Positions 9,747 to 52,599 of a stretch of DNA of 64,000 bases are shown here, piece by piece. Under the pieces are notes generated by a model that saw nothing but the letters and a program-made list of their open reading frames with translations, made no database searches and had not been told where the DNA came from. This DNA is from Akkermansia sp. (GTDB lineage: Bacteria; Verrucomicrobiota; Verrucomicrobiia; Verrucomicrobiales; Akkermansiaceae), in the NCBI GenBank assembly GCA_045635265.1, contig JAZRBU010000028.1, forward strand, positions 29,019 to 93,018. Direction: 5' to 3'. The stretch's first letter is position 1; each line of letters opens with the position of its first letter. A program made the position numbers and the translations under genes.

Positions 9747-9807
9747 GCCGCAGGTTGTACCCCGCCGCTCCGGAAAAGTCAAGTCTATTCGATTACCCGG
9801 CTCTCCC

Positions 9808-23640: not shown

Positions 23641-23880
23641 GATTAAGTTATGATTCTGATTTTCCAGAAAAGGTTCAATCCCGGGAGCACTAAGCTCCCG
23701 CGTACCCTACTATATACCACACAGCTCAAAGGAAAGCAAGCAATCAACGCAAAATTATGACGTTTTTCCTAATCCGTTTGAACTTTCCCGCTTCCCTGCT
23801 CCATTTTTGCGTCTGCGCGCATTATTGCCTTGCCTTTACCGCGCGGGTGCGTTATAATGCCACAGCTTCAAATAACTGGC

Positions 23881-25017
23881 ATGAAAGCAATTCTTGCACT
23901 CGAAAACGGAATTATCTTCGAAGGCACCTCTTTCGGTGCCACTGGTACTGTCACCGGCGAACTCGCCTTTAACACAGCCGTTGTAGGCTATCAGGAGCTC
24001 ATCACTGACCCCTCCTGGAAAGGACTCTTCCTCACCTACACATACTCCCACATCGGCAGCTACGGCATTAACGAGGAAGACAATGAGAGCGATCGCGCGC
24101 AGGCTGCAGCCGTCATTGCAACCGAACTTTCCCGCCTGCATTCCAACTGGCGCTCCACAGAATCCCTGAGCGACTGGCTTGCCCGCTACGGTGTACCCGG
24201 CATTGAAGGTGTAGACACCCGCAAGCTCACCCTCATCATCCGCGAGCAGGGCTCCATGCGTGCCTGCATCACCACCGAACTGAGCGCAGAGGAAGCCGTC
24301 GCCGCAGCTAAAGCCGCGCCCTCCATCTCCGAAACCGCTCCGGTGAGCGCCGTTTCCACCGCCGAGCCCTACCATTGGGACGGCGAATCCCGCGGCTGGA
24401 AACTGCCGAACAAATCCCGCGGCGACCTGTCCTACTACACGGAGCTTCCCGCAGCCACCCGCAAAGCCGTAGTGCTTGATTTGGGCGTCCAGCGCAGCGT
24501 GCTGGCCACCCTCCGCCGAGACGGGTTCGACCTCACCGTTGTGCCGGCTGCCACTTCTGCAGAGAATATCCTGGCTCTGGGCGCAGACGGCCTCTTCATT
24601 TCCCACGGCCCCGGCTCCCCCGAGGCTCTCTCCGGCGTTGTCGCAGAAGTAACGAAACTCATCGGCAAGCTGCCCATTTATGCTATGGGGCTGGGTCACC
24701 AGGTGCTTGCCATGGCTATGGGCTGCAAGAGCGTGAAGCTTCCCTTCGGTCACCACGGCGGCAACTACGCTGTACGAGACCTCCGCAGCGACGCCGTCTC
24801 CATCACCACGCAGAACAACTTCTATGCCGTAGAGGCAGACTCTGTCACCGGCGACGCCGTCATCACCCACACCAACCTGAGTGACAGCACCGTGGCAGGC
24901 GTGGCCTCCAAGAGCGCACCCGCTGCAGGCGTGCAGTTCCTGCCCGTTCCTCCTCCCACCGGTGAGCCCCGCATCTTTGCAGAGTTCATCGATATGGTTG
25001 ACTCCTTCAAGAAATAA
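23881..25017 (+). CDS. carA: Carbamoyl-phosphate synthase small-subunit homologue with degenerate glutaminase triad
   Basis: Trimmed to the ATG at 23881. The N-terminal CPSase_sm_chain is well conserved (GATGTVTGELAFNTAVVGYQELITDPSW). In the GATase part, AMGLGHQ replaces GICLGHQ and QFLPV replaces QGHPE. Confidence 0.8.
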   Translation: MKAILALENGIIFEGTSFGATGTVTGELAFNTAVVGYQELITDPSWKGLFLTYTYSHIGSYGINEEDNESDRAQAAAVIATELSRLHSNWRSTESLSDWLARYGVPGIEGVDTRKLTLIIREQGSMRACITTELSAEEAVAAAKAAPSISETAPVSAVSTAEPYHWDGESRGWKLPNKSRGDLSYYTELPAATRKAVVLDLGVQRSVLATLRRDGFDLTVVPAATSAENILALGADGLFISHGPGSPEALSGVVAEVTKLIGKLPIYAMGLGHQVLAMAMGCKSVKLPFGHHGGNYAVRDLRSDAVSITTQNNFYAVEADSVTGDAVITHTNLSDSTVAGVASKSAPAAGVQFLPVPPPTGEPRIFAEFIDMVDSFKK

Positions 25018-25049
25018 ACACCGCCCCTCGGGCCCAATCACATTACATC

Positions 25050-27548: not shown

Positions 27549-27931
27549 CCGCCCCCATTCTATGCCCTTTCAGACCGCCTTGCAAGCCAAAATCTCACTA
27601 CTCAATTTAGAAGCCTCCACCACTTCACTCCCGGATAAAAACTGACTTTTTGCCGGCAATCAACATTTCTCCCGAAACACCTTTTTCCACACCTCATTTT
27701 TCTATCAATAATTCACCCGCTGCAGAAATTAAATTTCCGGGCAGACACATTCCATCCTCCTCATATCATTCCAAACTCCGGCCACCGGATTCGATGTTAG
27801 TCTACCCCCAATCAATTCTTCTTATCATATCAGCATTTCTGAATTACGCACTGTTAATTATTATTGTCCATTTTCCTATTTTTTCATATTTTTACTCCCA
27901 TCTTTTTATTTTGTTTCAATAACTGCTACGT

Positions 27932-27946
27932 TTTCTAAACTTATAA
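27932..27946 (+). repeat. 15-nt direct repeat copy 1 (tttctaaacttataa)
   Basis: An exact copy recurs at 28238-28252, 306 bp away, within the ORF-poor AT-rich spacer. Confidence 0.8.
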
Positions 27947-28237
27947 AACACCCACTCCCTTTCGGCATCAAAACAAGGCTTATTTTTACCTCATGTCAAA
28001 ATCCCACACCACCGCAGGTTCATTTTTCACCCAACATCTCAGCACCATTCTGCAGGAACGCCCAATTGCTCATTTTAAACTCTCAAACTAACGTCTCTGA
28101 GCATCTCTACATACTTGCTTTCCCTTAAGCGTCTCTTTTCACTAAGAATTTCTTCAGACTTGTAATTTATTCTATTTATTGCATATAGATTAAACTCTGC
28201 AATATGCCCGTTTGTTTAATTTTCGCACTTGTTATCG

Positions 28238-28252
28238 TTTCTAAACTTATAA
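28238..28252 (+). repeat. 15-nt direct repeat copy 2 (tttctaaacttataa)
   Basis: Exact match to 27932-27946. Confidence 0.8.
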
Positions 28253-28769
28253 TCAACAGTCTCCATTTCAATCTGCACACAGAGAAAAGATGACGCCTTC
28301 GTGAAGGATTACCCACCGCTCCAAAAGCCATCTTTTCGGGCTTCAAAACCACAAAAACGAGACTTTCTCAAGCCAAATTACCCCCGCAAAACACCGTATT
28401 TTCTCCTCATCAAAAAGAAGATTCCACTCAAAAATAATGAAAATATCGCAAAATTCGGATTTTTATCATGAATATCATCTTTTTTAGCATTAAATTGATA
28501 TTCTTGAGCCTATTTTTTCTTTTGTTCATCACATTTCCTCTATCGGCAGAGTTAGATAGTTTTGCACTCTGAGAAATTGCTACGACGTTCGCTCTTTCAT
28601 CCCTATCATTAGTGGCAAAGCAGCGTTCTTCTTTAGCGACACACACACAGCGCATTTATCCTCATATAATGCACAAAACAGCCGCTAAACAGCGACAATT
28701 CGCCATGATTTCCAGGCTCGCACTAGAAGCACTGAATATCAGCCATTTACAATAAAACGCCGCAAGAAG

Positions 28770-28829
28770 CGCGAGAATCGCATATTCCGTACAAAAGTAC
28801 GGGCGCGTTTCAAATTTTCGATTCTCGCG
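28770..28829 (-). terminator. Nested hairpin downstream of the 249-aa gene
   Basis: An 11-bp perfect inverted repeat, cgcgagaatcg (28770-28780) with cgattctcgcg (28819-28829), encloses an inner hairpin ccgtac-aaaa-gtacgg (28787-28802). Confidence 0.5.
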
Positions 28830-28834
28830 GCACT

Positions 28835-31400: not shown

Positions 31401-31460
31401 CTTCCTGTCCCATTCTGCCCCCGCCCGCAGAAATTGTCAAGCAAAATGAACTCCGCTTCT

Positions 31461-31493
31461 ATGCAAAACAGGAATCGGATTCCCGTTTTGCAT
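31461..31493. promoter_or_regulatory. 33-bp palindromic operator-like site 1 upstream of the DUF4143 ATPase gene
   Basis: atgcaaaacaggaatc-g-gattcccgttttgcat, with arms matching 15/16. Confidence 0.6.
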
Positions 31494-31522
31494 AAAATTT
31501 TACCAAATTGACCCTCTTTTTT

Positions 31523-31555
31523 ATGTAATAATGGAATTAGATTCCCGTTTTGCAT
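31523..31555. promoter_or_regulatory. 33-bp operator-like site 2 (degenerate left arm, identical right arm)
   Basis: atgtaataatggaatt-a-gattcccgttttgcat. The 21-nt stretch gattcccgttttgcataaaat is identical to site 1. Centres are 62 bp apart. Confidence 0.55.
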
Positions 31556-31572
31556 AAAATAAACCAAGTCAT

Positions 31573-32559: not shown

Positions 32560-32576
32560 AGTTTTGGTAGGTGGTT

Positions 32577-32593
32577 CAGCATTTTTAATGCTG
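32577..32593. promoter_or_regulatory. 17-nt palindrome CAGCATT-N3-AATGCTG in the integrase leader
   Basis: cagcatttttaatgctg. Read on the minus strand it is identical to 32734-32750. It ends 17 nt from the integrase ATG. Confidence 0.6.
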
Positions 32594-32733: not shown

Positions 32734-32750
32734 CAGCATTAAAAATGCTG
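32734..32750. promoter_or_regulatory. 17-nt palindrome CAGCATT-N3-AATGCTG in the RM-gene leader
   Basis: cagcattaaaaatgctg, 14 nt upstream of the GTG start at 32765. An extra half-site aatgctg lies at 32625-32631. Confidence 0.6.
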
Positions 32751-32764
32751 ATAAATAGAGCCAT

Positions 32765-35700
32765 GTGAAATCCACTCTCCGTACCCTACTTGATTCCATA
32801 CGCGAAGCTACCCAACAAACATCTGAAGCTGATAAAGGGCACCGTTTTGAGGTACTCATGAAGCGGTATCTGCTGACTGACCCCACCTATAAGGCTCGAT
32901 TCTCAGATGTCTGGCTCTGGAATGAATGGCCCTATGCCAAAGGTCACGATGTGGGTATTGATATCGTGGCCAAAGAGGCTGATTCTGACCGTTACGTAGC
33001 CATACAGTGCAAATTTTATGAGCCTACACACCTGATGAGACTCCCTGATGTGCAGACTTTCTTCGCGGCTCTCAATGCCACCATCAATACTGAGTACAGC
33101 AAAAAGGACTCATTCGTACAAGGCATCATCATTGCCACGACTGACCATTGGAATGTAGTTCTGCTCAATAAATTGTATCAACAACACATTCCCTGCCAAC
33201 ACATCGGACTCTCTGACCTGGAAGAAGCCGCCGTGGACTGGTCTACCATTCTCAAAGGACAAGGTGAAATCGCAAAGTATCAGCCCCGCCCCCATCAGCG
33301 TGAAGCCATTGATGCCGTATTGGAGGGGTTCATGACTACTGACCGTGGTAAACTCATCATGGCCTGCGGTACCGGTAAGACTTTCACGGCTCTCCGACTG
33401 ATGGAAGAATTCACAGGTGGTAAGGGTTGTGTCCTGTTTCTTGCTCCGAGCATTGCCCTCGTTGCCCAAAGTCTGCGTGAATGGATGGCTCAAACAACTT
33501 GCAAAATCCATCCCATTGCCGTGTGTTCTGATGGTGAAGCATCCTCCATTGATGACTTGGTGGATTTGTCTGCTCGTGACCTCCCTGCGAGAGCTACCAC
33601 AGACCCCACGACTATTGCTCAACTGTATGCCAGATTCAAGGATAGCCATCTGACTGTTATTTTCTCCACATATCAGTCCATAGAGAAATTACATGAGGCT
33701 CAAAAGATCGGTGCATTGCCGGAATTTGACCTCTGCATCTGTGATGAAGCCCACCGCACGACAGGTGTTTCCCTCTATGATGAGAAGAAGGGTAAGCACC
33801 ATGAATCTCACTTCACCAAAATTCACAAGCAGGACTACATCGCATGCCGTAAGCGAGTCTACATGACTGCCACGCCGAAGATTTATGCCGAATCTGCGCG
33901 ACAAAAAGCAAAGGATACCAATGCAGAACTGGCTTCAATGAATGACCGTTCCTACTTTGGGGATGAATACTTCCGTCTGCCCTTCTCCCGTGCTGTTCGC
34001 GAGGGTCTGCTCACCGATTATAAAGTGCTGGTGCTCTGCGTTGATGAGGATTACGTAAAGGACATCATGGGGGAGCAACTCCAACAGGATGAAACAGGCG
34101 CCATTGAACTGGATGATGCCGTGCGACTTGTTGGCTGTTATAACGGACTGCGTAAAAAAGTCTTGTTGCCCGCCAATGCTGCTGCAGGTAATGCTGATTC
34201 CTACGACCCATCTCTCCCCGAACTACTTTCTCACGATGAGGACTTCCTTACCTCTGACCCGGGGCCGATGAAACGTGCGGTATCCTTTGCCAATGTCATC
34301 AAGGCTTCCAAGAATTATACCGAGATGTGGGGTAAGGTTGTGAATGCCATCCGCAAGGATGAAGAGGACGATTCTTCTTTCCTTGATAGCGAGATGCAGC
34401 ATGTGGATGGCAACATGGACATGGGAGAACGCGCGGCTCTGCTCTCGTGGCTCAAAGGTAATGCAGGAACAAACGCCAATCATGGTGTACCCGAATGTCG
34501 TATTCTCTCCAATGCTCGCTGCTTGTCAGAAGGTGTGGATGTTCCGTCTCTGGATGCGGTCATGTTCCTTGCACCTCGTAAATCGCAGGTGGATGTGGTG
34601 CAGTCCGTGGGGCGAGTGATGCGAATTGCTCAGGGTAAGAAGTTCGGTTACATCATTCTGCCCATCGGTATATCTCCCAGGGATAAGCCCGAAGAAGTGC
34701 TGGATAAGGATGAGAAGTATCGTGTGGTTTGGGATGTTCTGCAAGCTCTCCGCTCACACGACGACCGCTTCAACGCTGAAATCAACTCCATTGAACTCAA
34801 CAAGGGCCGAGGTAAACGTATCGTAGTAGGTGGTGTTACCGGGAAAAAGGGCAAGAAGCGCAACCCGAAAAAGAAGGATGGTTATGATGAATACGAGGAG
34901 GATGTACTCGTTGCCAAAGAAGGCGATGACAAACAGCTTTCCTTTGATTTTGACTTTGAGAAAGAATTACCCGCATGGACGGATGGTATCCTCGTCCGCA
35001 CCGTTCAGAAGTGCGGCGACAGGCGTTATTGGGAGGATTGGGCAAAGAACATCGCCAAGATTGCAGAAAAGCAGACAGCGGCTATCAACACACTTCTGGA
35101 TAAGGGTATTGGTTTGGCGGAGTTCCAACTCTTCCTGTCAGGTCTGCGAGAAAACACGAACCCTGCCATTACCGAGGCTGATGCCATTGAAATGTTGGCA
35201 CAGCAATTCATCTCCCGACCTGTGTTCAATGCGCTCTTTGAGAAGTATCAGTTCGCAGAGAACAATCCTGTCTCCAAGACCATGAACGACATGCTGGACA
35301 TCGTGCAGCAGAACACCGATGCCAATGACTTGCGAGAACTACGCCGCTTCTATGATTCAGTGAAAGACCGAGCCCAGAGCATTGATAACGCTGCCGGGCG
35401 TCAGCAGGTGGTCGTAGAACTTTACGACAAGTTCTTCAAGCAAGCATTCCCCAAGTTGGCCGAGAAACTGGGTATCGTTTACACCCCCATCCCTGTGGTA
35501 GACTTCATCGTGCATTCCGTCCACAAGGTGCTGCAACAGGAATTCGGGGTCAAAGATGGTCTGGGGGCCCGTGGTGTAAAGATTCTTGACCCCTTTACAG
35601 GAACAGGCACATTCATCGTCCGCGCCATCCAGAGCGGCCTTATCAAACGCAGCCAACTGCCTTACAAGTATCGTAACGAACTCTTTGCCTGTGAAATTGT

Positions 35701-37660
35701 GCTGCTTGCCTACTACATCGCGTGTGTAAACATTGAGGTGGCTTATCATGGTGTCATGAAGCAGGAGGAATACGAACCGTTCAATGGTATCTGCTTGACC
35801 GATACTTTCCGCATGGATGGTAACAGTGCTGCTGATAAGGACTTGTTCGCAGCCTTTGAGGATAACGGCGAGCGTGTGAAGAACCTCTGCAAGCAGGACA
35901 TCCGAGTGATTATCGGTAATCCTCCTTATTCTGCCAAACAAGAGTCTGCAAACGATAACAATCAGAATGAAGCCTATCCATACTTGGATGAGCGTATCGC
36001 TAATACATACGCTAAGAATGCCAAGGCTACTAACAAGAACAGTCTCTACGACTCATACATCCGTGCATTCCGATGGGCATCCGACCGCATTACCGATGAT
36101 GGTATCCTCGCCTTTGTAACCAATGGTGCATACATTGATAACAACGCCATGACTGGCTTCCGTCAGTCCCTCATGGACGAGTTTGATTCCATCTACTGCT
36201 TCAATCTCCGAGGAAACGCTCGCACATCAGGTGTTCAGCGTCAGAAGGAAAAGGGTAATGTGTTCGGTGAGGGGTCTCGCACACCGATTGCCATTATCAT
36301 CCTCGTCAAGAAGAAGAACCGACCTGCTGGTCAGCTGGCTACGCTTCATTATCACGACATCGGTGATTATCTCTCTCGTGAGCAGAAACTTGAAATCATC
36401 CAGGGGTTTGGTAACTACTCTGGTATCCCTTGGCAGCCACTCATCCCTGATGAACACGGAGATTGGCTCAATCACCGCACATCTGGTTATGATAAGTTCC
36501 TGTCCATCGGTGATAAAGCCACCAAGGGTAAGCCTGATACCAAGGCTCTCTTTACCTTGTTCTCCAATGGGGTAAAGACGAACCGTGACACATGGTGTTA
36601 TAACTATTCTCGCGTTGCGTTGGAAAGCAACATGCGCCGTAGTATTGAGTTCTTCAATACTCAATCAGGACTTGCAGAATTTGACTACGACCCCACCAAA
36701 TTCTCATGGGGAAGACAGCAGAAAAAGGATGCAGAGCGTGGTAAGCAATACTGTTTCTCTGCTTCATCCATCGTCCCTGCTGTTTATCGTCCGTTCTGTA
36801 AGCGTCATGGATACATCCATAAAGACATGAACGACATGCTTTATCAGATACCTAAACTGTTCCCTACACCACAGCATAAGAACTTGGTAATTCAACTAAC
36901 AGGTAATGGTTCTAGCAAACCGTTCTCTTGTCTTATTAGTGCGATAACGCCAGATTTACAGGTAATGTTCAATGGACAGTGCTTCCCCCTCTACTGGTAT
37001 GAGGAACGGAATGCCGATGCGCCGATGCTTGACCTTGGTATGGAAGCCGATGCAGGTGATTACATCCGTCACGATGGCATCTCAAACTTCGGACTCAAAC
37101 AGTTCCGAACAGCCTACGGAGACCCCAAGATTGGTAAGGAGGACATCTTCTATTATGTGTATGGGCTGTTGCATAGCACAGAATACCGCACACGCTTTGA
37201 GAACGACCTGAAAAAGGAACTTCCCCGCATCCCCTTTGCCAAGGATTTCTGGGCATTCTCCAAGGCCGGCCGTAAGTTGGCAGAACTCCATCTGAACTAT
37301 GAGACGATAGAACCTTGGCCAATCAAGGAATACTCCCATGGTAACTTCCGAGTGACCAAGATGCGTTTCCCCAAGAAAGGAATTCGTCACACCATCATCT
37401 ACAATGACTCATGTACGCTGAGTGAGATTCCCGAAGAGGCATACGAATACATCGTGAATGGCAAGTCCGCCATCGAATGGGTCATGGAGCGCTATGCCGT
37501 CACCATAGATAAAGATAGTGGTATCACCAATGACCCGAATGACTGGTGTGACGAACAAGGCAATCCCCGCTACATTATTGACCTCGTGAAACGCATCGTC
37601 CGTGTCAGCATGGAAACCATGGAGATAGTAAAAACCTTGCCCCCGCTGGAGGAGATGTGA
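32765..37660 (+). CDS. Type ISP restriction-modification enzyme (Mrr-like nuclease + SF2 DEAH translocase + N6-adenine methyltransferase + TRD), LlaGI/LlaBIII-like
   Basis: GTG start. Nuclease motif GIDIVAK...AIQCKFY (D...QxK). Helicase motifs: I ACGTGKT (about 33367), II DEAH (33742-33753), VI QSVGRVMR. MTase motifs: I LDPFTGTGTF, IV NPPY (35918-35929). 1631 aa as a single polypeptide. Confidence 0.85.
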   Translation: MKSTLRTLLDSIREATQQTSEADKGHRFEVLMKRYLLTDPTYKARFSDVWLWNEWPYAKGHDVGIDIVAKEADSDRYVAIQCKFYEPTHLMRLPDVQTFFAALNATINTEYSKKDSFVQGIIIATTDHWNVVLLNKLYQQHIPCQHIGLSDLEEAAVDWSTILKGQGEIAKYQPRPHQREAIDAVLEGFMTTDRGKLIMACGTGKTFTALRLMEEFTGGKGCVLFLAPSIALVAQSLREWMAQTTCKIHPIAVCSDGEASSIDDLVDLSARDLPARATTDPTTIAQLYARFKDSHLTVIFSTYQSIEKLHEAQKIGALPEFDLCICDEAHRTTGVSLYDEKKGKHHESHFTKIHKQDYIACRKRVYMTATPKIYAESARQKAKDTNAELASMNDRSYFGDEYFRLPFSRAVREGLLTDYKVLVLCVDEDYVKDIMGEQLQQDETGAIELDDAVRLVGCYNGLRKKVLLPANAAAGNADSYDPSLPELLSHDEDFLTSDPGPMKRAVSFANVIKASKNYTEMWGKVVNAIRKDEEDDSSFLDSEMQHVDGNMDMGERAALLSWLKGNAGTNANHGVPECRILSNARCLSEGVDVPSLDAVMFLAPRKSQVDVVQSVGRVMRIAQGKKFGYIILPIGISPRDKPEEVLDKDEKYRVVWDVLQALRSHDDRFNAEINSIELNKGRGKRIVVGGVTGKKGKKRNPKKKDGYDEYEEDVLVAKEGDDKQLSFDFDFEKELPAWTDGILVRTVQKCGDRRYWEDWAKNIAKIAEKQTAAINTLLDKGIGLAEFQLFLSGLRENTNPAITEADAIEMLAQQFISRPVFNALFEKYQFAENNPVSKTMNDMLDIVQQNTDANDLRELRRFYDSVKDRAQSIDNAAGRQQVVVELYDKFFKQAFPKLAEKLGIVYTPIPVVDFIVHSVHKVLQQEFGVKDGLGARGVKILDPFTGTGTFIVRAIQSGLIKRSQLPYKYRNELFACEIVLLAYYIACVNIEVAYHGVMKQEEYEPFNGICLTDTFRMDGNSAADKDLFAAFEDNGERVKNLCKQDIRVIIGNPPYSAKQESANDNNQNEAYPYLDERIANTYAKNAKATNKNSLYDSYIRAFRWASDRITDDGILAFVTNGAYIDNNAMTGFRQSLMDEFDSIYCFNLRGNARTSGVQRQKEKGNVFGEGSRTPIAIIILVKKKNRPAGQLATLHYHDIGDYLSREQKLEIIQGFGNYSGIPWQPLIPDEHGDWLNHRTSGYDKFLSIGDKATKGKPDTKALFTLFSNGVKTNRDTWCYNYSRVALESNMRRSIEFFNTQSGLAEFDYDPTKFSWGRQQKKDAERGKQYCFSASSIVPAVYRPFCKRHGYIHKDMNDMLYQIPKLFPTPQHKNLVIQLTGNGSSKPFSCLISAITPDLQVMFNGQCFPLYWYEERNADAPMLDLGMEADAGDYIRHDGISNFGLKQFRTAYGDPKIGKEDIFYYVYGLLHSTEYRTRFENDLKKELPRIPFAKDFWAFSKAGRKLAELHLNYETIEPWPIKEYSHGNFRVTKMRFPKKGIRHTIIYNDSCTLSEIPEEAYEYIVNGKSAIEWVMERYAVTIDKDSGITNDPNDWCDEQGNPRYIIDLVKRIVRVSMETMEIVKTLPPLEEM

Positions 37661-37672
37661 TATAGTATCTAT

Positions 37673-38491
37673 ATGGGAGAAAAGAAGTATACGAGATTAT
37701 CACGCCAAGAAATCGAGTTGGCGCTCGCAAATACGCAAATGAAAGTAGGCGAATTAGCCCAGCTAACTCTGAGCAGTATTCTTCAGCATCCCGATTTTCC
37801 CTCTGAATACTTAGAAAAGTTCAGATGTAAAAATTTTAGCAAAAATACTTTCGGTCTTTCCAGAGCACTATTAATCAGAAGAAGAGAATGGGCCAAAACT
37901 CCTCAATTACCTTACTATGCGGAATATCTGGAATGTAATGGCAAATATTACTGTCTTTGTTCAGAATGGACAGAACGACAGCTACCAAAATTAAAAAATT
38001 GGGTTAATCGTCACAAAATCGATTTGAGTGAACGCCGGAACCTTTGGCAACTTGAAGAAGCACATCCTCAACAGAAAAACCGATGGGCTGTAGTTGAATT
38101 AGAACAATTGTGCCAGGATAAAATCATTCCCTGTGGCAGAATCAAACGAGGAAAAGGAAATGATAGATTAATAAAGATTTCAAAAACCGATTGGCTGGGA
38201 ATAGTGGATAAAGAACCAAATCGCATCGTCTTCCGTTTCAGAAAGAATAATATATATAGGCTATACGCTGTTTCTACGAGTTTGATTCGCGAAACAATAA
38301 ATGCTTTCCCGCATAGATTTTCAAAAACAACAGCTAGCGAATACTGGAGTTTTTCATTAAATATTTTATCTGGCAAACTTAGTAATACTCAAGGTTCACC
38401 GAGAACAGCATTTGCTACATGTTATGTATACATTGCGAGACCGACAGCGTCTTCCAAAATTCAGTCTCCACAGAAAAATATTAACACCTGA
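37673..38491 (+). CDS. Hypothetical protein (272 aa), no recognisable domain
   Basis: ATG 12 nt after the RM stop, on the same strand. Very AT-rich. Coding-like composition with no internal stops. Confidence 0.6.
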   Translation: MGEKKYTRLSRQEIELALANTQMKVGELAQLTLSSILQHPDFPSEYLEKFRCKNFSKNTFGLSRALLIRRREWAKTPQLPYYAEYLECNGKYYCLCSEWTERQLPKLKNWVNRHKIDLSERRNLWQLEEAHPQQKNRWAVVELEQLCQDKIIPCGRIKRGKGNDRLIKISKTDWLGIVDKEPNRIVFRFRKNNIYRLYAVSTSLIRETINAFPHRFSKTTASEYWSFSLNILSGKLSNTQGSPRTAFATCYVYIARPTASSKIQSPQKNINT

Positions 38492-38538: not shown

Positions 38539-40587
38539 ATGAACTACCTCTCAAAAGTAGAAGCAAAGAAAGCCGTCTTATCTGATGGCAAAAACATTTG
38601 CAACATGTCTTTCAGCCTCCGTGATGACGACGAATTAGCATGGTTGGCAATTGAACACGGAGCGTCTATCAATGATGTCTCTTACAGACTACAAAATGAC
38701 CTTGCCTTTTCTCTTAAATATGCGAGATATTGCGCCAAATTGGGAATAGTTGAACAAAATTTCTTCAGAGCATTATTTATTGCACAACATTCTCTTGAAT
38801 TCCTTAACACTTACTGTTCACTATTTGCAAATGAGCCGGAGTTCATTATGTACTTGAAGCTTGCTCATGGAAAGAATTATAGATCTCCCATAGTCTCACT
38901 CAACAAATATGAAGGAGAAGAGCTGGCTCACATCATCAATCAATATAAGCGCAACCTGATAAAAGAATTGAAAGAGGAATATTATTCCCATTCTTATCAG
39001 GAAATGCATTTAAAAACAGGTTACAATGCAGCAAATGAACTGCGTAATTTCGCCCTATTGTCACGTGGTGACAACCTTCCGTTCTGCGAGATTCCTGAGC
39101 TGATAAAAAAACAAATTGAACGCTTAGATACACAAGTTGATTGTTTGAGAGCAACTAGCAGGAAAGGCTCATTTCCTGAACGCGTCATAGATGCCATTCT
39201 TAAGCAACTCAATGTTGCATTTGACCGAGAAGTTGTTTTCCAGTGGAGTCGCCCTAATAATGCAAACAAATTAAATGGTTACAAGCGTTATGACTTCTAT
39301 CTTCCTGAATACAATGCAATAATAGAAGTGCATGGAGCTCAACATTATTCGGCAGGGTTCGAAACATTCGGCGGGCGTTCTCTGAAGGAAGAACAGGCCA
39401 ACGATCACTTAAAACAAGCATTAGCTAAACAAAATGGCATTACCAATTATATCGTCATTAATGCCGCAGTTTCCAACTTTTATTATATTAAAGAATCAGT
39501 CATTTCGAATAAAGATTTCTCTACTTGCTTCGATTTATCAAAATTAAACTGGCATGAGATAAAAATAGCAACTATAGAGGAACCAGACATAAGCTTACCC
39601 TTATATCAATTACAAAAATCTTTTTATGAAGAACTGAGTTCTCTATTCAATAACACCTTCTCTGTTATCCCAATCCAACAACCATCTAAAGATTTTGGTG
39701 AAGGGTGTTCGGAAGAGACTTCCAAACTGACAATATGGAAAAAAAGCATCAAAGTCAGTATGCGAGGTCTGTATCCTCATGAAATCATATTGCTAGAGCG
39801 AGCCAAGCGTTCATCGGCACCGGAAATGACATGTCCAGTTGATGCTGACAATGTTATTGGTAAGTGGTACTATGAATATGGAATCTCAAATGTGCGTCCC
39901 ATAGTTGAACGATTGGCTGATTCAGGATTTATACAAGTAGGAGGACTACGATATACACTTCAACGCACAGAAGCTAATAAACTCAAACAGTTTGCTTCCA
40001 AACAAGGCATAAAGGCTCATGGCAAGAAAGAAGAAATTATCGCTCGAATTCTCGAAAACATTCCCGAACACATTATCAAAGAGACCTTCACTAAACAGTA
40101 CTATGAGCTAACGGAATTAGGCAAACAAGAGCTGAATGAAAACAGCTACATTTTTGATGCCATTCAAGTTCCGATTCTGGACGCAATGACTCGAATCAAA
40201 TTAGCGCAGCAACATCCCGATCAGGACATCTATGAAGTCATACAGAGACACCTCAAAGGTCATGAACCCTCTACCGGCTGCACAAATACAGACTCCGCAC
40301 AAAGTGCTACAAACTACGATGAGGGTGATAAATACCAGATCATTTGTACCCTGGACAAAAAGACTTGCGAGCGATGTGGTTCGATGGATTTGAAAGTTTT
40401 TGACTATGCACAAAAGGAAATAGGTGTTACTTACCCACCATTCCACGATGGTTGCCGCTGCTGTGCAGTACCGTATTTTGACGGAGACGAACATAATGAG
40501 CGTGCAGCACGAAACAGAGACGGCAAAACCATCTTTGTGGAAAATATGAATTGGCAAGAATGGAGAAAAGTATATGGCAGCAACTAA
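38539..40587 (+). CDS. Multidomain hypothetical protein: DUF4116-like N-terminal repeats + DUF559/Vsr-like PD-(D/E)xK core + SAP motif + C-terminal phage MuF-like Cys-rich domain
   Basis: RYDFYLPEYNAIIEVHGAQHY...EQANDHLKQALAKQNGI (nuclease-like, about 39241-39500). LKQFASKQGIKAHGKKEEIIARIL (SAP-like). LDKKTCERCGSMDLKVF...YPPFHDGCRCCAVPY (MuF/SPP1 gp7-like, about 40351-40480). Confidence 0.6.
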   Translation: MNYLSKVEAKKAVLSDGKNICNMSFSLRDDDELAWLAIEHGASINDVSYRLQNDLAFSLKYARYCAKLGIVEQNFFRALFIAQHSLEFLNTYCSLFANEPEFIMYLKLAHGKNYRSPIVSLNKYEGEELAHIINQYKRNLIKELKEEYYSHSYQEMHLKTGYNAANELRNFALLSRGDNLPFCEIPELIKKQIERLDTQVDCLRATSRKGSFPERVIDAILKQLNVAFDREVVFQWSRPNNANKLNGYKRYDFYLPEYNAIIEVHGAQHYSAGFETFGGRSLKEEQANDHLKQALAKQNGITNYIVINAAVSNFYYIKESVISNKDFSTCFDLSKLNWHEIKIATIEEPDISLPLYQLQKSFYEELSSLFNNTFSVIPIQQPSKDFGEGCSEETSKLTIWKKSIKVSMRGLYPHEIILLERAKRSSAPEMTCPVDADNVIGKWYYEYGISNVRPIVERLADSGFIQVGGLRYTLQRTEANKLKQFASKQGIKAHGKKEEIIARILENIPEHIIKETFTKQYYELTELGKQELNENSYIFDAIQVPILDAMTRIKLAQQHPDQDIYEVIQRHLKGHEPSTGCTNTDSAQSATNYDEGDKYQIICTLDKKTCERCGSMDLKVFDYAQKEIGVTYPPFHDGCRCCAVPYFDGDEHNERAARNRDGKTIFVENMNWQEWRKVYGSN

Positions 40588-40617: not shown

Positions 40618-40680
40618 TTGTCTCATATCTGCTAAAAAAGCAAGAGATTTTACGCAGATATGAGACAAAATCTTTTTTTC
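40618..40680 (+). terminator. Intrinsic terminator after the 682-aa gene
   Basis: A 15-bp stem, ttgtctcatatctgc (40618-40632) with gcagatatgagacaa (40655-40669), followed by aatcttttttt. Confidence 0.8.
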
Positions 40681-47376: not shown

Positions 47377-50300
47377 TCAGAACTTGATAGAGGTATTGAT
47401 GTTGGCGCTGTAGTTGACAGCGTCACCCATGACTTCCAGAGCGGCGTTGGCGCCGACACTCCAGGAGGCATTGATATCATACGCAGCACCGACGCGCACA
47501 CCGGCGCCAACAGTACCGGGATTGGCTCCCTCTGCGCACCAGCCATTGACGGAGGGCATGGGATTATCACGCATGAGATCACCCAGGAAGCGGGCTTCCG
47601 CATACATCACAGTAGAAGCATAGCGGCGGGTAATACCGGTACCGAACTCAGCGCGAAGGTTGCGGATTTCACCGCTGTCAACCCCGGCAACAGTATCGCC
47701 CGTGTTCATGTAGTACTCCAAGCCGCCGAAGACGTTGACCGTAGTCGTATCGGAAATGGAGCGGCTCCAGTCCAGACGACCATTCAGCTGAAGGCTGTCC
47801 TGCTCCCAGGACATGGAGGAAGCACGGGAGGGCGTAGATTCCACAGAACCGTAAACGGCAGACCAGCTGAAGGTGATACCACTGGTATCACTCAGCCGCT
47901 TGATGACGGATGCACCGTAGACACCAACATAAGTACCGTCCTGCTCCATCTCATCCAGCATACCGTCGGGAGTCACATCCGTGGTATTCACGCCGATGGC
48001 CAGACCCACACAGGAAGTCTTGCCCAGCATGGTCTCGATACCGAAGGCGGCACCAAGGGTGGAGGTATCACTACCGCGCTTCACGCCGTCGTCTCCCACA
48101 GACATGCTGTTATAGAGAGCGGATACCCAGACGGAGGGACCATTCTCACCCACAGAACCGGAAGCGGAACGCTGGCCCTGCAGAGCATCGGCAAAGGCGT
48201 GAGAAGCGGCAAACATACCCCAGTTGCTCTGCACCATAAGATCACGCAGCTCACTATTGGAGATGGACCACTTGCCGTTCGTGTGCTCATACACCTTGTC
48301 AAGGTCAAGAAGCACCTGCACCTTGCCTTCCGTCTCCTTGAGCGTCAGGGCATATTCGGTGTTGGGATTACCGTCATCGTAGTTCAGCACAAGCTGCCCG
48401 AAATCACCGGTAAGAGAGGAAGATTCCATCAGCACGTCGCCGTCGGCATACTTGCCGGCTTCCAGCTGCACAAGCGTATCTGCCGTGAGCGTGATGGAAC
48501 CGGAAACAGTCAGCTTGCAGCCATCGGAAACAACAGCCATGCTGCGCTTCTGGGAATCCTTCATGCCATTGAAGTAAACCGTACCGCCATTGAGACGGAG
48601 ATTGCCGTCCAGTTTGGCATTGCGGTCCAGAACAATAGCCGTGGCATTGCCGGTGCGGACATTGCCGGTAAGGCTGCCGCCGCGGAAATAGAGTCCCTGC
48701 TTGCCGGAGAGTACCAGCTGCACGCCCTCATCCGCCACCATACGACCGCCGTTCAGGTAGATATTGCCGGCACCCAGAGCTTCCTCACGTGCAATGCGAA
48801 GAGCGCCGTCGTTCACAGTCATATCACCGGTGGAAGAATTCTTGCCGCGCAGAACAGTCTCACTGTCCATCACGGTAATAGAGGTATCACCCTTGAGCGC
48901 AACATCGATAGATGCAGGACCGGTGGCAATGATATCCGTATCCTTGAGGGAACCGCCCTTGACGGAACCGCTCTCCAGAGCAACCTGTGCAGCGGTGGTA
49001 TCATCCCCCACGGTCACATCACCCATGATGGAAAGCTTGCCGTCATAGGCCGTACCGGAGAACTCACCGCCGCGGGCAATGACATTGTTCTTCACAGCGT
49101 ACTCACCCATATTGAGCTTACCGCCCGTCAGTTCAATATCACCGGAACCGAAGGAATCTGCACCGCCGGCATTCACCGTGCCGTCTTCGATGGAGGTACC
49201 GCCTTCATAGGTGTTCGCGGCGTTCATATTCAGCGTACCCTTACCGCGTTTGATAAGAGAAGCCTTGCCAACGATAGAGCCGGAACCGCCGAAGGAGACA
49301 TCCTCAGAACCCTCCACCTCAATGGAAGCAGGACGCACATCACCCACGATTTCCACCGTACCGCCGTTATTGAAGACAACCTTGTCTCGGTTGTAGAAGC
49401 GTGCATCATCGGCATCGGTATCCCATTCCTGGTCACCGAGCTGGGACCACACGCCCACCTGACCGGATTTCCAGTACAGCGTGGCGGGATTCTCCTCCAC
49501 CTTCAGCATGAGAGAGGAACCGCTGACGGCGAGCGTATTCACGTTACGCGTATCCGTCACGGGAGTCAGCATGGCAAGGTCACCGCTGATGCTGCCGGCA
49601 TTCACCAGCACATAGTTTCCTCCGTTCTCGTAGTTATTGACGTCAAGAACCGTATCGGAGAGAATCGTCAGAGCACCGCCCACCTGAAGCGTGATGCCGG
49701 GTCCGCCGGGAATCAGCTTGCCGCCGTTAAGCGTCAGCTCACCGGAAACGGAAGAGATGTCCGTGTAGGAGATAGAAGAATCGGCAGCAGATTCCAGAGA
49801 ACCCTGCAGATTACCGCCGCTGAACTTGACATCCTGACCGGAAACAAGCACCAGGGGAGTCTCAGGATTCAGAGAACCGCCCTGCAAGTCCATATCTGCG
49901 GTAGTGCTGCCCTGCAGAGAGAGCATGCCGTTCTGAACCGTAATCAGGCCGGTGGTGGAGTGGTCGCCGCGCAGCACCGTGTTCCCCAGCACCGTGAGGT
50001 TGGTCTTACCAACAAGCAGAGTCTCAATCGTCACGCCTTCAGCGGTGATGGAAGTATCCTTCAGGGAACCGCCGGTGATAGTAGCAGCCTTGAGCACCAC
50101 GGAAGAAGCGGTAGTATTCTCACCAATAGTAGCCGTACCGGTCACGCTGAGCGTACCCGCATAGGCCGTACCGGAGAACGTACCGGAATTGACCATCACG
50201 TTGTTGCTCACGGCATATTCACCCAGCTCCAGATTACCGCCTTTCACAGTGATATCACCCGTACCGAAAGCCTTTTCATGACCGGCGATAAGCGTACCGT

Positions 50301-52401
50301 TAAGCAGCTCTGTTCCGCCGGAGTACTCGTTTGCGAGAGAAATCTTCAAGGAACCGTCACCCTGTTTGGTGAGCTTCATGTCACCGGCAAGCTTACCACC
50401 GGAAGGATCAGCCACCCATTCATAGGCACCGGCGGTGGTATTATCCACCAGCACCATGGACGGACGAAGCTCGCCCTTGAGAGTGACCGTACCGGCAGCG
50501 GTGTCGGTAAACGTAGCGGATGCACCGTTGGAGAACGCGTAGGCCTGACCGTTCTGCTCCCAGTTGATAGCTACGGAGCTCCAGACGAAGTCGCCGTCAC
50601 CGTTGGCCCAGGTAGCATCCAGAAGCGCAGGCAGCGTGGTGTAGTAGTACAGAACGCGGAGGGCACCCTCAGTCTCCCAGCGCAGATTGGCATAGGTCAC
50701 ATCAAAACCAATCTCAGGAGCACCGATTGCCGTCAGATTAGCAGATGTCCAGCCATCCAGAGCCACGGCTTCAGCCATTTCCATGAGCTTGTACTTACCG
50801 TCCGTCAGCGGAGAATCCACTACAAGATTGATTGTAGAACCGGCATTGAACGTCACCGATGTCTCGGAATTCAGAAGCACACCGGAAGCGGTGAGATTCA
50901 GGGCATTCACCTCAAAGGTCAGCGAGTTGTTACCGTCGAAAACAATACCGACGGCTTCGATGGTGCTGCCGGTGCCCTTGACATGAAGCTTAGACCCAGA
51001 GGAGAACACGACACGACCGTCTCCCTGATTCACTTCCAAATCTTCAAAAACAGAAGCGGCAACTGCACCGTTATTCAGATACAGCGTAGAATTGTTGCCG
51101 GCAATAAAAGCACCGGTCAGGTAAACTGCACCGTCCGTCACCATCATGCGGCCGCCGTGAACCGTAGTCACGCCGAGTGCCAGAGAGGTGGAGGAAAGAG
51201 TCACCTCCTCTGCGGAAGGAGTGGTCGGGTTTGCCTCCTCAGGATTTGCGCCTTCAGCCTTGAATGCCGTCAAATCTTCCAGCACATTACGGGCGGAGAA
51301 AATCACATCACCGGCAGCCTGCTCTGTTGTACCGGCTGCGTTGGTGTACGGGGCATTGATGCTGACCGAGCAGTCCACATTGATGGGGTCATAGAACGTA
51401 ACCGAAGAATTGGCACCTGCAGAAACGTTAAGAGCACCTTTGTAATCGGTCTTCATACCGATACTTTCGAGGTAATAAGCCTCACCGTCACGGAAGCTGG
51501 CATAAACACCGTTATTGCGGAATGTCACAGAATCATTACCGGCGATGGTAATAGAGTTCAGCGCACCGACGGCAGCACCCAGAGCATCACCGCCGCGAGC
51601 AGAGGTCACGGAAAGGCGGTTTCCCTGGAAGACAACGTCCTCGTTGTTGACAATCCGTACATCGTTACCGAAAACAGCACCGCCGCAACCGAACGCCTCA
51701 GTCCCATCCCCTCCGTCCACGCTCAGAACCAGCTTATTGGCCTGAATACTGACGTCCTTATTATTGGCAATCTCCATCGTCACGCCGCCGAGCGTACCAC
51801 CCAAAGCGTGCCCCTTGCGCATCTCATTTCCCTCGGTAGCAACGTCCACCGTCGTAACATTGCGGGTGATATTGATATTGCGGTTATTGCGGATAGAGAA
51901 GGTATCCCCGTTGTCTGTAAATCCGGCCAAATCACCCAGGGTATCCGTCTCGTCGCTGATTTCAGGCAAACCGGCCGCCATCACGCCGCCCATAAAGGCA
52001 AAGTTCGTCTTTACACCGACATCAACCGTACTACTGTCGACCGTGAGATTATTGAGACCGACAAAAGTCAAATCACCGACAGTCAGAAGCTTACCACCGG
52101 AAGACATATTGATACTGCCGGGGTTATCATTGCTCCAGCTGGTGAAGAGGACATCCTTCACCCCATCAGTGAACAGAGAGTATGCCGGGTTCCAAGTAAT
52201 GGTAAAGTTCGACACGTTATTGGCCGATTTGAGCAGGAAGGCGGCCTGCTTCTGGCTACCGGCCACATCGCTGGGCTGAGTCACAGTAATCTGGGCATAA
52301 CCATTCGGCACATCACTGATTCCGCCGAACGTTACGGCGGGGAATGCCACCACGGCTGCTACAAGCGCGTGGAACAAAGACACGGGGAGGTGTGGTTTCA
52401 T
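47377..52401 (-). CDS. Autotransporter outer-membrane protein with PATR-type beta-strand repeats
   Basis: Trimmed to MKPHLPVSLFHALVAAVVAFPAVTF (ATG at 52401). Repeated GGTxxxxGTLxxG...FGTGDI modules. The C-terminal ~280 aa form a beta-barrel-like region ending ...NINTSIKF. Confidence 0.85.
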   Translation of the reverse strand: MKPHLPVSLFHALVAAVVAFPAVTFGGISDVPNGYAQITVTQPSDVAGSQKQAAFLLKSANNVSNFTITWNPAYSLFTDGVKDVLFTSWSNDNPGSINMSSGGKLLTVGDLTFVGLNNLTVDSSTVDVGVKTNFAFMGGVMAAGLPEISDETDTLGDLAGFTDNGDTFSIRNNRNINITRNVTTVDVATEGNEMRKGHALGGTLGGVTMEIANNKDVSIQANKLVLSVDGGDGTEAFGCGGAVFGNDVRIVNNEDVVFQGNRLSVTSARGGDALGAAVGALNSITIAGNDSVTFRNNGVYASFRDGEAYYLESIGMKTDYKGALNVSAGANSSVTFYDPINVDCSVSINAPYTNAAGTTEQAAGDVIFSARNVLEDLTAFKAEGANPEEANPTTPSAEEVTLSSTSLALGVTTVHGGRMMVTDGAVYLTGAFIAGNNSTLYLNNGAVAASVFEDLEVNQGDGRVVFSSGSKLHVKGTGSTIEAVGIVFDGNNSLTFEVNALNLTASGVLLNSETSVTFNAGSTINLVVDSPLTDGKYKLMEMAEAVALDGWTSANLTAIGAPEIGFDVTYANLRWETEGALRVLYYYTTLPALLDATWANGDGDFVWSSVAINWEQNGQAYAFSNGASATFTDTAAGTVTLKGELRPSMVLVDNTTAGAYEWVADPSGGKLAGDMKLTKQGDGSLKISLANEYSGGTELLNGTLIAGHEKAFGTGDITVKGGNLELGEYAVSNNVMVNSGTFSGTAYAGTLSVTGTATIGENTTASSVVLKAATITGGSLKDTSITAEGVTIETLLVGKTNLTVLGNTVLRGDHSTTGLITVQNGMLSLQGSTTADMDLQGGSLNPETPLVLVSGQDVKFSGGNLQGSLESAADSSISYTDISSVSGELTLNGGKLIPGGPGITLQVGGALTILSDTVLDVNNYENGGNYVLVNAGSISGDLAMLTPVTDTRNVNTLAVSGSSLMLKVEENPATLYWKSGQVGVWSQLGDQEWDTDADDARFYNRDKVVFNNGGTVEIVGDVRPASIEVEGSEDVSFGGSGSIVGKASLIKRGKGTLNMNAANTYEGGTSIEDGTVNAGGADSFGSGDIELTGGKLNMGEYAVKNNVIARGGEFSGTAYDGKLSIMGDVTVGDDTTAAQVALESGSVKGGSLKDTDIIATGPASIDVALKGDTSITVMDSETVLRGKNSSTGDMTVNDGALRIAREEALGAGNIYLNGGRMVADEGVQLVLSGKQGLYFRGGSLTGNVRTGNATAIVLDRNAKLDGNLRLNGGTVYFNGMKDSQKRSMAVVSDGCKLTVSGSITLTADTLVQLEAGKYADGDVLMESSSLTGDFGQLVLNYDDGNPNTEYALTLKETEGKVQVLLDLDKVYEHTNGKWSISNSELRDLMVQSNWGMFAASHAFADALQGQRSASGSVGENGPSVWVSALYNSMSVGDDGVKRGSDTSTLGAAFGIETMLGKTSCVGLAIGVNTTDVTPDGMLDEMEQDGTYVGVYGASVIKRLSDTSGITFSWSAVYGSVESTPSRASSMSWEQDSLQLNGRLDWSRSISDTTTVNVFGGLEYYMNTGDTVAGVDSGEIRNLRAEFGTGITRRYASTVMYAEARFLGDLMRDNPMPSVNGWCAEGANPGTVGAGVRVGAAYDINASWSVGANAALEVMGDAVNYSANINTSIKF
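48919..49204 (-). repeat. Internal ~95-aa duplication, copy B, within the autotransporter passenger
   Basis: GGTSIEDGTVNAGGADSFGSGDIELTGGKLNMGEYAVKNNVIARGGEFSGTAYDGKLSIMG...GGSLKDTDIIATG parallels copy A. Confidence 0.8.
50035..50330 (-). repeat. Internal ~95-aa duplication, copy A, within the autotransporter passenger
   Basis: GGTELLNGTLIAGHEKAFGTGDITVKGGNLELGEYAVSNNVMVNSGTFSGTAYAGTLSVTG...GGSLKDTSITAEG. Confidence 0.8.
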
Positions 52402-52599
52402 ATATGTATATAGTTGAAATATCGGAAGATAGGAGCCCCGAACATAAATCGGGGAGGACTCTGCTGCTGATTCCGCACATCTTCCGGGCACAAAAACCGG
52501 CAACAAAATCTCTACTTTGTCCATTCTACCCTATCATCTTATGGAGTCAAGCTAAAAGAAAACATTTACCAAGATTATTAGTTCTTTCTTTACGCAACA

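Follow-up and report, generated by a model that had tools for sequence, protein, structure and literature searches.

The described systems closest in layout to the protein reported here are the MuF polymorphic toxins of temperate phages (Jamet et al. 2017, PMC5576092; Iyer et al. 2017, PMC5512222), in which a MuF domain (PF04233) and an effector, often a nuclease, are joined in one polypeptide. In these toxins the MuF domain is complete and N-terminal, the toxin is C-terminal, and the gene stands after a portal gene in a prophage and is itself followed by an immunity gene. MuF proteins are among the most widespread of phage head proteins, their function is poorly understood, and they have so far been regarded as a handle by which the phage itself loads effectors into capsids. 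SPP1 gp7, a MuF protein, binds strongly to the portal and is directed into the interior of the capsid; a few copies of it go into the procapsid, and DNA binding has been ascribed to it (PMC6316719, PMC5576092). Canonical muf genes follow the portal gene, with 96% of muf genes lying in prophages or prophage remnants, near portal, terminase or capsid genes (PMC5576092), and MuF domains are a known handle for the packaging of effectors, more than half of the predicted MuF toxins having nuclease domains (PMC5576092, PMC5512222, PMC9503650). Here, we describe a gene at 38539..40587 of a 64,000-nucleotide stretch of Akkermansia sp. DNA (contig JAZRBU010000028.1; "the window" throughout), whose product shares with these toxins both the gut-microbiome setting and the motif of the MuF core.

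The protein differs from the MuF toxins, and is new relative to its known parts, in that its MuF region is reduced to the core and stands at the C-terminus, the nuclease lies N-terminal to it with a SAP module in between, and the gene is located away from any packaging module, with no packaging or immunity gene nearby. The explanation we favour, tentatively and as something rather short of probable, is that the product of the gene is a nuclease, acquired horizontally, that takes part in the conflict of the bacterium (or of an element that it carries) with phages, the SAP-MuF region directing or triggering the nuclease. The gene and the parts of its product are as follows.

38539..40587, plus strand: complete open reading frame (ORF) with an ATG start, nuclease-SAP-MuF multidomain protein of 682 amino acids (ORF list)
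38539..39138, plus strand: all-helical N-terminal region, amino acids 1 to about 200, with DUF4116-like repeats (Pfam match below the cut-off, AlphaFold2 helices)
39151..39543, plus strand: Vsr-like PD-(D/E)xK nuclease domain, amino acids about 205-335 (PHROG profiles, conserved residues, fold matches)
39544..39837, plus strand: helical or linker region, amino acids 336-433, conserved only inside the family (family alignment, AlphaFold2)
39838..40290, plus strand: predicted SAP-containing DNA-binding module, amino acids 434-584, the SAP motif itself at amino acids 480-507 or nucleotides 39976-40059 (Pfam SAP, BLASTP to stand-alone proteins)
40291..40584, plus strand: conserved core of MuF (SPP1 gp7 / Mu gpF), amino acids 585-682, with a Cys/His cluster of C610, C613, H636, C639 and C641 (Pfam PF04233, phrog_115, tblastn)

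The gene was acquired horizontally and is of foreign origin. Its guanine-cytosine (GC) content is 39.3%, against 61-63% in the flanking core genes purA and groEL (most of the window lies at 51-63%), and its relatives occupy varied loci. The neighbouring GroEL belongs to a 90%-identity cluster in which every named member is from Akkermansia sp. The 90% cluster of the protein holds eight members, with a representative that is 99% identical.

On the evidence of sequence profiles and of the predicted fold, the domain at amino acids 205-335 or so is a Vsr-like nuclease of the phage homing-endonuclease type. The original prediction, made from the letters of the window, had assigned it to the DUF559, DUF2726 and Vsr-type folds from a string (KRYDFYLPEYNAIIEVHGAQHY...NGITNYIVI) that corresponds to amino acids 249-307, inside this domain. 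A Pfam scan of the whole protein gave no match to DUF559 (PF04480), DUF2726 (PF10881) or Vsr, even at E≤1, so that membership of the first two families falls away, whereas the Vsr-like fold and the catalytic motif stand: although the absence of a DUF559 or DUF2726 match formally speaks against the nuclease, it is overridden by the PHROG profiles, the fold searches and the invariant residues. Amino acids 205-330 are matched by phrog_4538 (1e-29), by phrog_9084, annotated as homing endonuclease (1.6e-18), and by phrog_7140, annotated as intron encoded nuclease (1e-9), and the domain is common to all 120 of the 120 listed homologues. When 40 aligned relatives of the domain were scanned one by one against Pfam, weak matches appeared to DUF559 (14 of 40), DpnII-MboI (11), PvuRts1I_N (7), DUF2726 (6) and Vsr (3), with best E-values of about 3e-4 to 5e-3 depending on the family (DUF559 1.6e-3, DUF2726 4.6e-3). 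Ten residues, Y251, D252, F253, I261, E263, G266, Q268, H269, D289 and K292, are invariant both in these 40 relatives and in the 29-member family of full-length proteins. E214, in an SFPER motif, is near-invariant, while H265 shows no variation in the 29-member family and is kept in at least 90% of the 40 domain relatives. Candidate catalytic residues, as judged from this conservation, are E214, D252, E263, H265, H269, D289 and K292. This putative active-site set is intact and invariant, and the nuclease, of a Mg-dependent type, looks catalytically competent.

The whole protein found no sequence match in the PDB, and a profile of the nuclease domain gave weak matches there only, including the EDxHD homing endonuclease I-Bth0305I (3r3p, E 0.31). 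In the latter alignment PE is paired with PE, YDF with VAF (3r3p being a D196A mutant) and IIEVHG with AIEVNG. The Vsr residues E25, D51, H64, H69 and D97 correspond to E170, D196, N208, H213 and D222 of I-Bth0305I (PMC3239194); taking this mapping together with the 3r3p alignment, the five EDxHD positions would have their counterparts in E214, D252, H265, H269 and D289 of the window protein. An AlphaFold2 model of the domain alone reached a predicted local distance difference test score (pLDDT) of 89.4, and its best PDB match was Vsr bound to DNA (1cw0_A, E 3.3e-3, probability 1.00, template modelling score 0.43-0.47), followed by R2 retrotransposon nucleases, 1vsr, PvuRts1I and AbaSI. The full-length model, when compared with the predicted viral structures of BFVD, matched entries for homing endonucleases, "VSR endonuclease", DUF559 and DUF2726 (E 2e-10 to 4e-3), with a root mean square deviation to the homing endonucleases of 2.4-3.0 Å over 136 alignment columns at 32% identity. 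The predicted catalytic fold and the five putative EDxHD counterparts are therefore what the window protein has in common with the Vsr-like homing endonucleases, both I-Bth0305I (3R3P) and the free-standing enzymes of Staphylococcus and Enterococcus phages. It is, however, three times larger than these, lacks their zinc-ribbon and NUMOD modules (no NUMOD-type DNA-binding module was matched by Pfam in the 682 amino acids) and sits in a bacterial chromosome, in no intron, intein or phage, and its second histidine follows H265 at a spacing of +4, as in DUF559-type motifs, rather than at the +5 of Vsr.

The top Foldseek match of the full-length model in the PDB was FAN1 (probability 0.99-1.0, E 0.03-0.08, not significant), which likewise combines a SAP motif, helical repeats and a PD-(D/E)xK nuclease, VRR-nuc in the case of FAN1. 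As the E-values are non-significant and both the domain order and the nuclease subfamily differ, we keep FAN1 as an architectural analogy only.

AlphaFold2 predicts helices throughout the N-terminal region, with pLDDT mostly 84-96 at amino acids 11-150 and 73-89 at amino acids 151-200. DUF4116 (PF13475), a family that the original prediction had proposed looking for, matches amino acids 10-52 below the Pfam cut-off (E 2.8e-3, 17.6 bits against 24.9), and many homologues have PF13475 in their precomputed domain tables. Profile scans of amino acids 336-433 gave no match, and AlphaFold2 modelled this stretch with pLDDT of 64-92 per block of ten residues.

The SAP profile of Pfam (PF02037) matches amino acids 480-507 with an E-value of 4.7e-4 and 20.2 bits, below its cut-off of 23.9. 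SAP is present in the precomputed tables of homologues, the same positions pass in relatives, with E-values down to 5.6e-12 in the closest C-terminal relatives, and AlphaFold2 predicts a helix-loop-helix here, with helices at amino acids 479-488 and 497-507. Further towards the C-terminus, amino acids 585-643 match Phage_Mu_F (PF04233) above the cut-off (30.7 bits against 29.6) over profile positions 52-111 of 112, TIGR01641 matches below its cut-off (7.7e-9, 35.9 against 39.65), and families of minor head proteins match amino acids 588-680, among them phrog_115, "minor head protein", at 6e-23. A tblastn search with the C-terminal 123 amino acids reached 210 phage records, the best being head-morphogenesis or minor head proteins of Clostridium, Clostridioides and Brevibacillus phages (37-48% identity, E around 1e-17). 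In phage phiC2 the match corresponds to amino acids of about 256-340 in a 465-residue protein, whose gene directly follows the portal gene.

In an exhaustive search of 1.84e9 representatives, 3805 relatives of the MuF core were recovered at E≤1e-3, with the core lying mostly at residues 250-345 or so; in the 149 best, it is preceded by a median of 241 amino acids. At every position that is at least 90% conserved in those 149 cores the window protein carries the consensus residue, including L605, D606, T609, C613, D617, G629, P633, P634, H636, C639, R640, R655, A657, R658, G662 and W675, and the motif LD..TC..C ... PP.H..CRC ... R.AR..G ... W is kept. What is absent is the N-terminal MuF region of about 240 amino acids, the place of which is taken by the unrelated nuclease and SAP regions. 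Amino acids 585-682 are thus, as far as sequence can tell, a well-kept MuF core without its usual N-terminal region. In two relatives of the core, P0122 and P0123, the MuF core is present twice in tandem, with no further recognised domain. The idea that MuF is itself an ADP-ribosyltransferase was dropped, as what the papers show is such transferases fused to MuF (PMC5512222, PMC9503650).

The composition originally predicted, with nuclease, SAP and MuF in one protein, therefore survives, all three regions being present. Its SAP-like motif at about 480-510 coincides with the match below the Pfam cut-off, with positions that pass in relatives and with the two modelled helices. Its C-terminal MuF domain was right as to the family and the intact motif, and overstated in that only the conserved core is there. 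The statement that MuF domains are normally N-terminal was only loosely right, given where the core stands in the canonical proteins. As for the arrangement being unlike any known, the fusion is indeed rare: among the best 150 representatives of the MuF core, this nuclease occurs only in the gene's own family, for which there is a single 50%-identity representative. The MuF core is, however, no one-off graft, as the SAP-MuF part recurs in stand-alone proteins.

The nearest relatives of the MuF core are proteins of 300-515 amino acids in which a SAP motif precedes the core, and not canonical head proteins. In these stand-alone proteins (P0124, P0125, P0127, P0128, P0129 and others) the entire C-terminal 250 amino acids of the window protein find a homologue, at 33-37% identity and with E-values of 7e-35 to 6e-45; within the core, identity rises to 46-59% and all belong to the same clade, whereas the nuclease and the DUF4116 region are lacking. 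In BLASTP, amino acids 434-682 align continuously with P0124 (37% identity, E 6e-45) and P0127 (33%, E 7e-35). The SAP region is shared by 16-18 of the 149 best representatives of the MuF core, depending on whether phmmer or jackhmmer is used, and none of these has the nuclease. On these alignments, amino acids 434-682 are a recurrent, ready-made unit. At the N-terminus of P0127 and P0129 there is a hydrophobic stretch, probably transmembrane as judged by inspection.

The contexts of four stand-alone genes, those of P0124, P0127, P0128 and P0129, were looked up, and no portal gene stood beside the SAP-MuF gene in any of them. In the P0127 locus (L092, 7136-12062) the order is HTH_3, Peptidase_M78, SAP-MuF, Uma2 nuclease, Abi_2 and integrase, with phage replication genes alongside, while P0129 (L096, 4465-8082) is encoded between an S24 CI-type repressor and an integrase; the two SAP-MuF genes hence share a place between a prophage repressor, of Peptidase_M78 or S24 type, and the integrase, with the Uma2 and Abi_2 genes as further neighbours in L092. 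The interval between repressor and integrase is the classical site of superinfection-exclusion genes, for example in the lactococcal P335 phages. At the P0124 locus a MerR gene is followed by SAP-MuF, a large serine recombinase, HNH, DUF2924/DUF5681 genes and a Type IIG restriction-modification gene, and this cassette is found again in a second host context. Three of the four contexts are therefore lysogeny-type or integrative-element regions, and the fourth adjoins a nuclease gene: 10 nucleotides upstream of the P0128 gene (L098, 139-3358, and also L099) lies the gene of a 689-residue protein that has five CapR repeats and, at its C-terminus, a nuclease homologous to that of the window protein (BLASTP E 5e-9) and with a weak DUF2726 match. 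Because this nuclease gene adjoins a SAP-MuF gene, the pairing of nuclease and SAP-MuF exists both fused, in the window, and split into adjacent genes, in L098 and L099.

The full-length protein belongs to a wider family. Four relatives at 54-57% identity have the same architecture with the MuF core, one of them also with a TM2 domain, and about 25 relatives from Clostridia, at 29-37% identity, have DUF4116, nuclease and SAP in common with it. The C-terminal ends of the Clostridia proteins vary, some having no extension, others hydrophobic and apparently transmembrane tails, and others another helical domain. The nearest genome match, an Akkermansia metagenome-assembled genome, has its copy at a different locus, adjoining a gcvT-like gene, and a further MuF-type copy is flanked by a multihaem-cytochrome-like gene and an ankyrin gene. 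Akkermansia-like genomes carry relatives at no fewer than three different loci. A comparison of 14 loci showed the family gene to be lower in GC than its flanks in most of them. The full architecture was not found in viral contigs or GenBank phages, where only the nuclease domain occurs, and a metagenome scan added one short locus only. Eight loci, including the window, have an unrelated ORF upstream of the family gene on the same strand, the gap being 12-47 nucleotides in seven and 284 nucleotides in L008. In L004 the ORF just upstream of the family member (9528-9986, 152 amino acids) has an R-x4-H motif and a weak match to the HEPN part of Csx1/Csm6 models (E 0.003), and in L015 there is an upstream ORF of the family gene with a TM2 domain.

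In the window the gene stands in an island between purA and groEL, with the following features next to it.

32765-37660, plus strand: Type ISP restriction-modification enzyme, 1631 amino acids (Pfam Mrr_cat_2, ResIII, ISP_coupler, N6_Mtase and Type_ISP_C; PADLOC REase_MTase_IIG, 1996 bits)
37673-38491, plus strand: ORF of 272 amino acids with no family assigned, 12 nucleotides after the Type ISP gene (ORF list)
40618..40668, plus strand: inverted repeat with 21-nucleotide arms, 90% complementary, then a T-run, likely a transcription terminator after the gene (repeat search and sequence reading)

The Type ISP gene and the 272-residue ORF lie directly upstream of the nuclease-SAP-MuF gene on the same strand. 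A homologue of this ORF (36% identity, 410 amino acids) directly follows another Type ISP gene in L100, where the nuclease-SAP-MuF gene is absent; the ORF may be an unrecognised accessory of Type ISP systems, and it was rejected as a system partner of the nuclease gene, since its homologue accompanies a Type ISP gene elsewhere without the family gene. Its GC content is 38%, against 49% in the gene of the Type ISP enzyme. The island also holds an AAA_14/DUF4143 ATPase gene and, 6 kb upstream of the nuclease-SAP-MuF gene, an ORF with a partial match to an integrase family. Downstream of the gene come the hairpin with its T-run, which a simple terminator scan missed as the 9-nucleotide loop exceeds the limit of that scan, and then groEL, groES and dnaK (the latter two identified by eye).

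Families of portal, terminase or capsid proteins were absent from the window ORFs scanned, that is, those of at least 100 amino acids between 23.8 and 40.6 kb, apart from the frame opposite 23836-25041 and some mostly overlapping ORFs, together with ten others in the window. These ten further large ORFs are housekeeping or unknown, with no phage structural gene among them, and for the ORFs sampled the earlier statement that the gene lies outside any prophage accordingly holds. No tRNA gene was found in the window. Neither direct nor inverted repeats bracket the gene, the pairs found being short, with one arm inside the ORF, and taken as chance.

Several other features of the window can be recorded here. 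At 31442-31560, two tandem copies of a 57-nucleotide element, 77% identical and 62 nucleotides apart, each contain a palindrome of about 20 nucleotides (TTCTATGCAAAACAGGAATC/GATTCCCGTTTTGCATAAAA); they fall in the short stretch that separates the AAA_14/DUF4143 ATPase gene from the beginning of the partial-integrase ORF, and they overlap an ORF of 115 amino acids. A perfect 18-nucleotide inverted repeat (TCAGCATTTTTAATGCTG), with arms at 32576-32593 and 32734-32751, 140 nucleotides apart, covers the beginning of the partial-integrase ORF and the sequence immediately before the Type ISP gene. A 1.3 kb stretch (27549-28834) of 40% GC with no ORF above 100 amino acids separates the island genes from a DUF3592-like gene and may be the other edge of the acquired island. 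On the minus strand, a 672-residue protein with Schlafen AlbA_2 and HATPase_c_4 (12069-14087) falls in a second low-GC patch (46-48%) and may be acquired or defence-related, while 47377-52524 encodes a protein of 1715 amino acids with passenger-associated transport (PATR) repeats, probably a large surface or autotransporter-like protein.

The conserved MuF core stands here outside a head module. In the few contexts looked up it lies beside repressor, integrase or recombinase genes (with abortive-infection or restriction-modification genes in some cases), and it is repeatedly linked to a nuclease, by fusion or by adjacency, which suggests that the MuF handle now works against phages, or in competition between phages. 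Since the portal is bound tightly by SPP1 gp7, which binds DNA as well, we propose that the MuF core would bring the nuclease to the portal, the procapsid or the DNA end of an infecting phage; alternatively, the core would switch the nuclease on when such a phage partner appears. Cleavage of the phage DNA would follow, either during packaging or on entry. In this model, the SAP motif would provide general binding of double-stranded DNA and the helical N-terminus may regulate or oligomerise the protein, while family members with transmembrane tails in place of the MuF core would place the same nuclease at the membrane. There is a likeness here to the superinfection-exclusion and assembly-interference genes of prophages, such as the Tai systems (PMC11364771), in the repressor-integrase position of the SAP-MuF relatives and in the proposed action through a structural component of the phage. 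There is no sequence relationship to these genes, and the window gene lies outside a prophage and lacks a membrane anchor.

A number of results weigh against this explanation. Several family loci are set among housekeeping genes without defence neighbours, and the PADLOC-DB 2.0 defence models gave no match to the 682-residue protein, only noise at E 0.077. The lysogeny-type setting is that of relatives of the C-terminal module, in four look-ups, and not of the window gene, nor did any immunity or self-protection factor come to light. What the MuF domain does biochemically is itself stated to be unknown (PMC5576092). Moreover, with the N-terminal 240 or so amino acids of MuF missing, portal binding may have been lost, and the invariant polar residues D606, T609, D617, H636, R640 and R655 would equally fit an enzymatic or ligand-binding role of the core. 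The structure prediction called for by the original prediction was confident for the nuclease domain, with Vsr as the top PDB match, and unreliable for the MuF core, where pLDDT was about 30 and only four sequences of the alignment cover the core.

Other explanations have to be set beside the one we favour. It is unlikely, although the catalytic domain is most closely related to phage homing endonucleases, that the gene is a selfish, free-standing element of the homing type, making a specific chromosomal cut and spreading by its repair, with the SAP motif and other parts recognising DNA and the MuF core a mere passenger. Those phage enzymes are often multi-copy in Staphylococcus Kayvirus and are combined with DUF4379, NUMOD1 or I-HmuI-like modules, and the family gene is a low-GC insert at varied loci, often at contig ends, and solitary in L083. 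Nonetheless, family members of 580-965 amino acids are far above typical homing endonucleases in size and do not have the NUMOD or zinc-ribbon modules, and the C-terminal transmembrane tails of several would fit homing poorly. Phages and viral contigs have yielded the nuclease domain and no full-length relative; no intron, intein, disrupted target gene or flanking repeats were found, and the strict conservation of the MuF core would be left unexplained. We consider it more doubtful again that the protein is an effector delivered by virions, a MuF-type toxin in reversed order that derives from or serves a phage or satellite, in which the core would load the nuclease into capsids for injection with the DNA into the next host. 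The role of MuF as a packaging handle, and the frequency of nucleases among predicted MuF toxins, would accommodate such a function, as would the intact core and the partial integrase-family ORF 6 kb upstream. Nevertheless, the scanned window ORFs show none of the portal, terminase or capsid families that accompany nearly all muf genes, the order of the domains is reversed, the N-terminal region of MuF is missing, and the gene is followed by a terminator and groEL instead of an immunity gene. The closest relatives of the module, furthermore, stand beside repressor and integrase or recombinase genes, which are typically expressed in lysogeny, and not in late operons.

An improbable alternative would make the protein a toxin or abortive-infection nuclease acting in a two-gene module with the gene immediately upstream, and would leave MuF and SAP without mechanistic importance. 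The mostly closely spaced same-strand ORFs upstream of the family gene, one of them weakly HEPN-like, speak for this explanation, as does the arrangement conserved between L007 and L016; against it, the upstream ORFs are mutually dissimilar, that of the window belongs with the Type ISP gene, and the family gene of L083 has no same-strand upstream partner. Finally, the rarity of the architecture, with its one 50%-identity representative, and a composition foreign to the host could be read as the marks of a functionless, decaying chimera formed by accidental fusion of a nuclease gene with a prophage fragment. This is scarcely credible, given that the 682-residue frame is intact, that relatives at 54-57% identity have kept the whole architecture, that the catalytic and MuF-core positions are conserved, and that the same pairing occurs as adjacent genes elsewhere.

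The explanation we favour, of a nuclease directed or triggered by SAP-MuF in conflict with phages, can be extended to the module as a whole, and in this wider form we regard it as possible but doubtful. Cells and prophages would have captured the MuF core together with SAP as a targeting or sensing handle against other phages and would have fused it to a nuclease or paired it with one, as in L098 and L092, so that the genome of the phage is destroyed at packaging or entry, or its progeny capsids are loaded with nuclease. A keyword search found no literature description of a defence or exclusion role for the SAP-MuF module, and of the surveys of MuF proteins, one does not mention SAP (PMC5576092) and the other does so once, in another context (PMC5512222). 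If this explanation is true, it would amount to a defence principle, so far undescribed, that is based on mimicry of a virion component. It would also establish a new family of genes for defence or exclusion, common in the prophages of gut Firmicutes and present in Akkermansia, a species of medical interest, and would provide a tractable route to what the MuF core binds.

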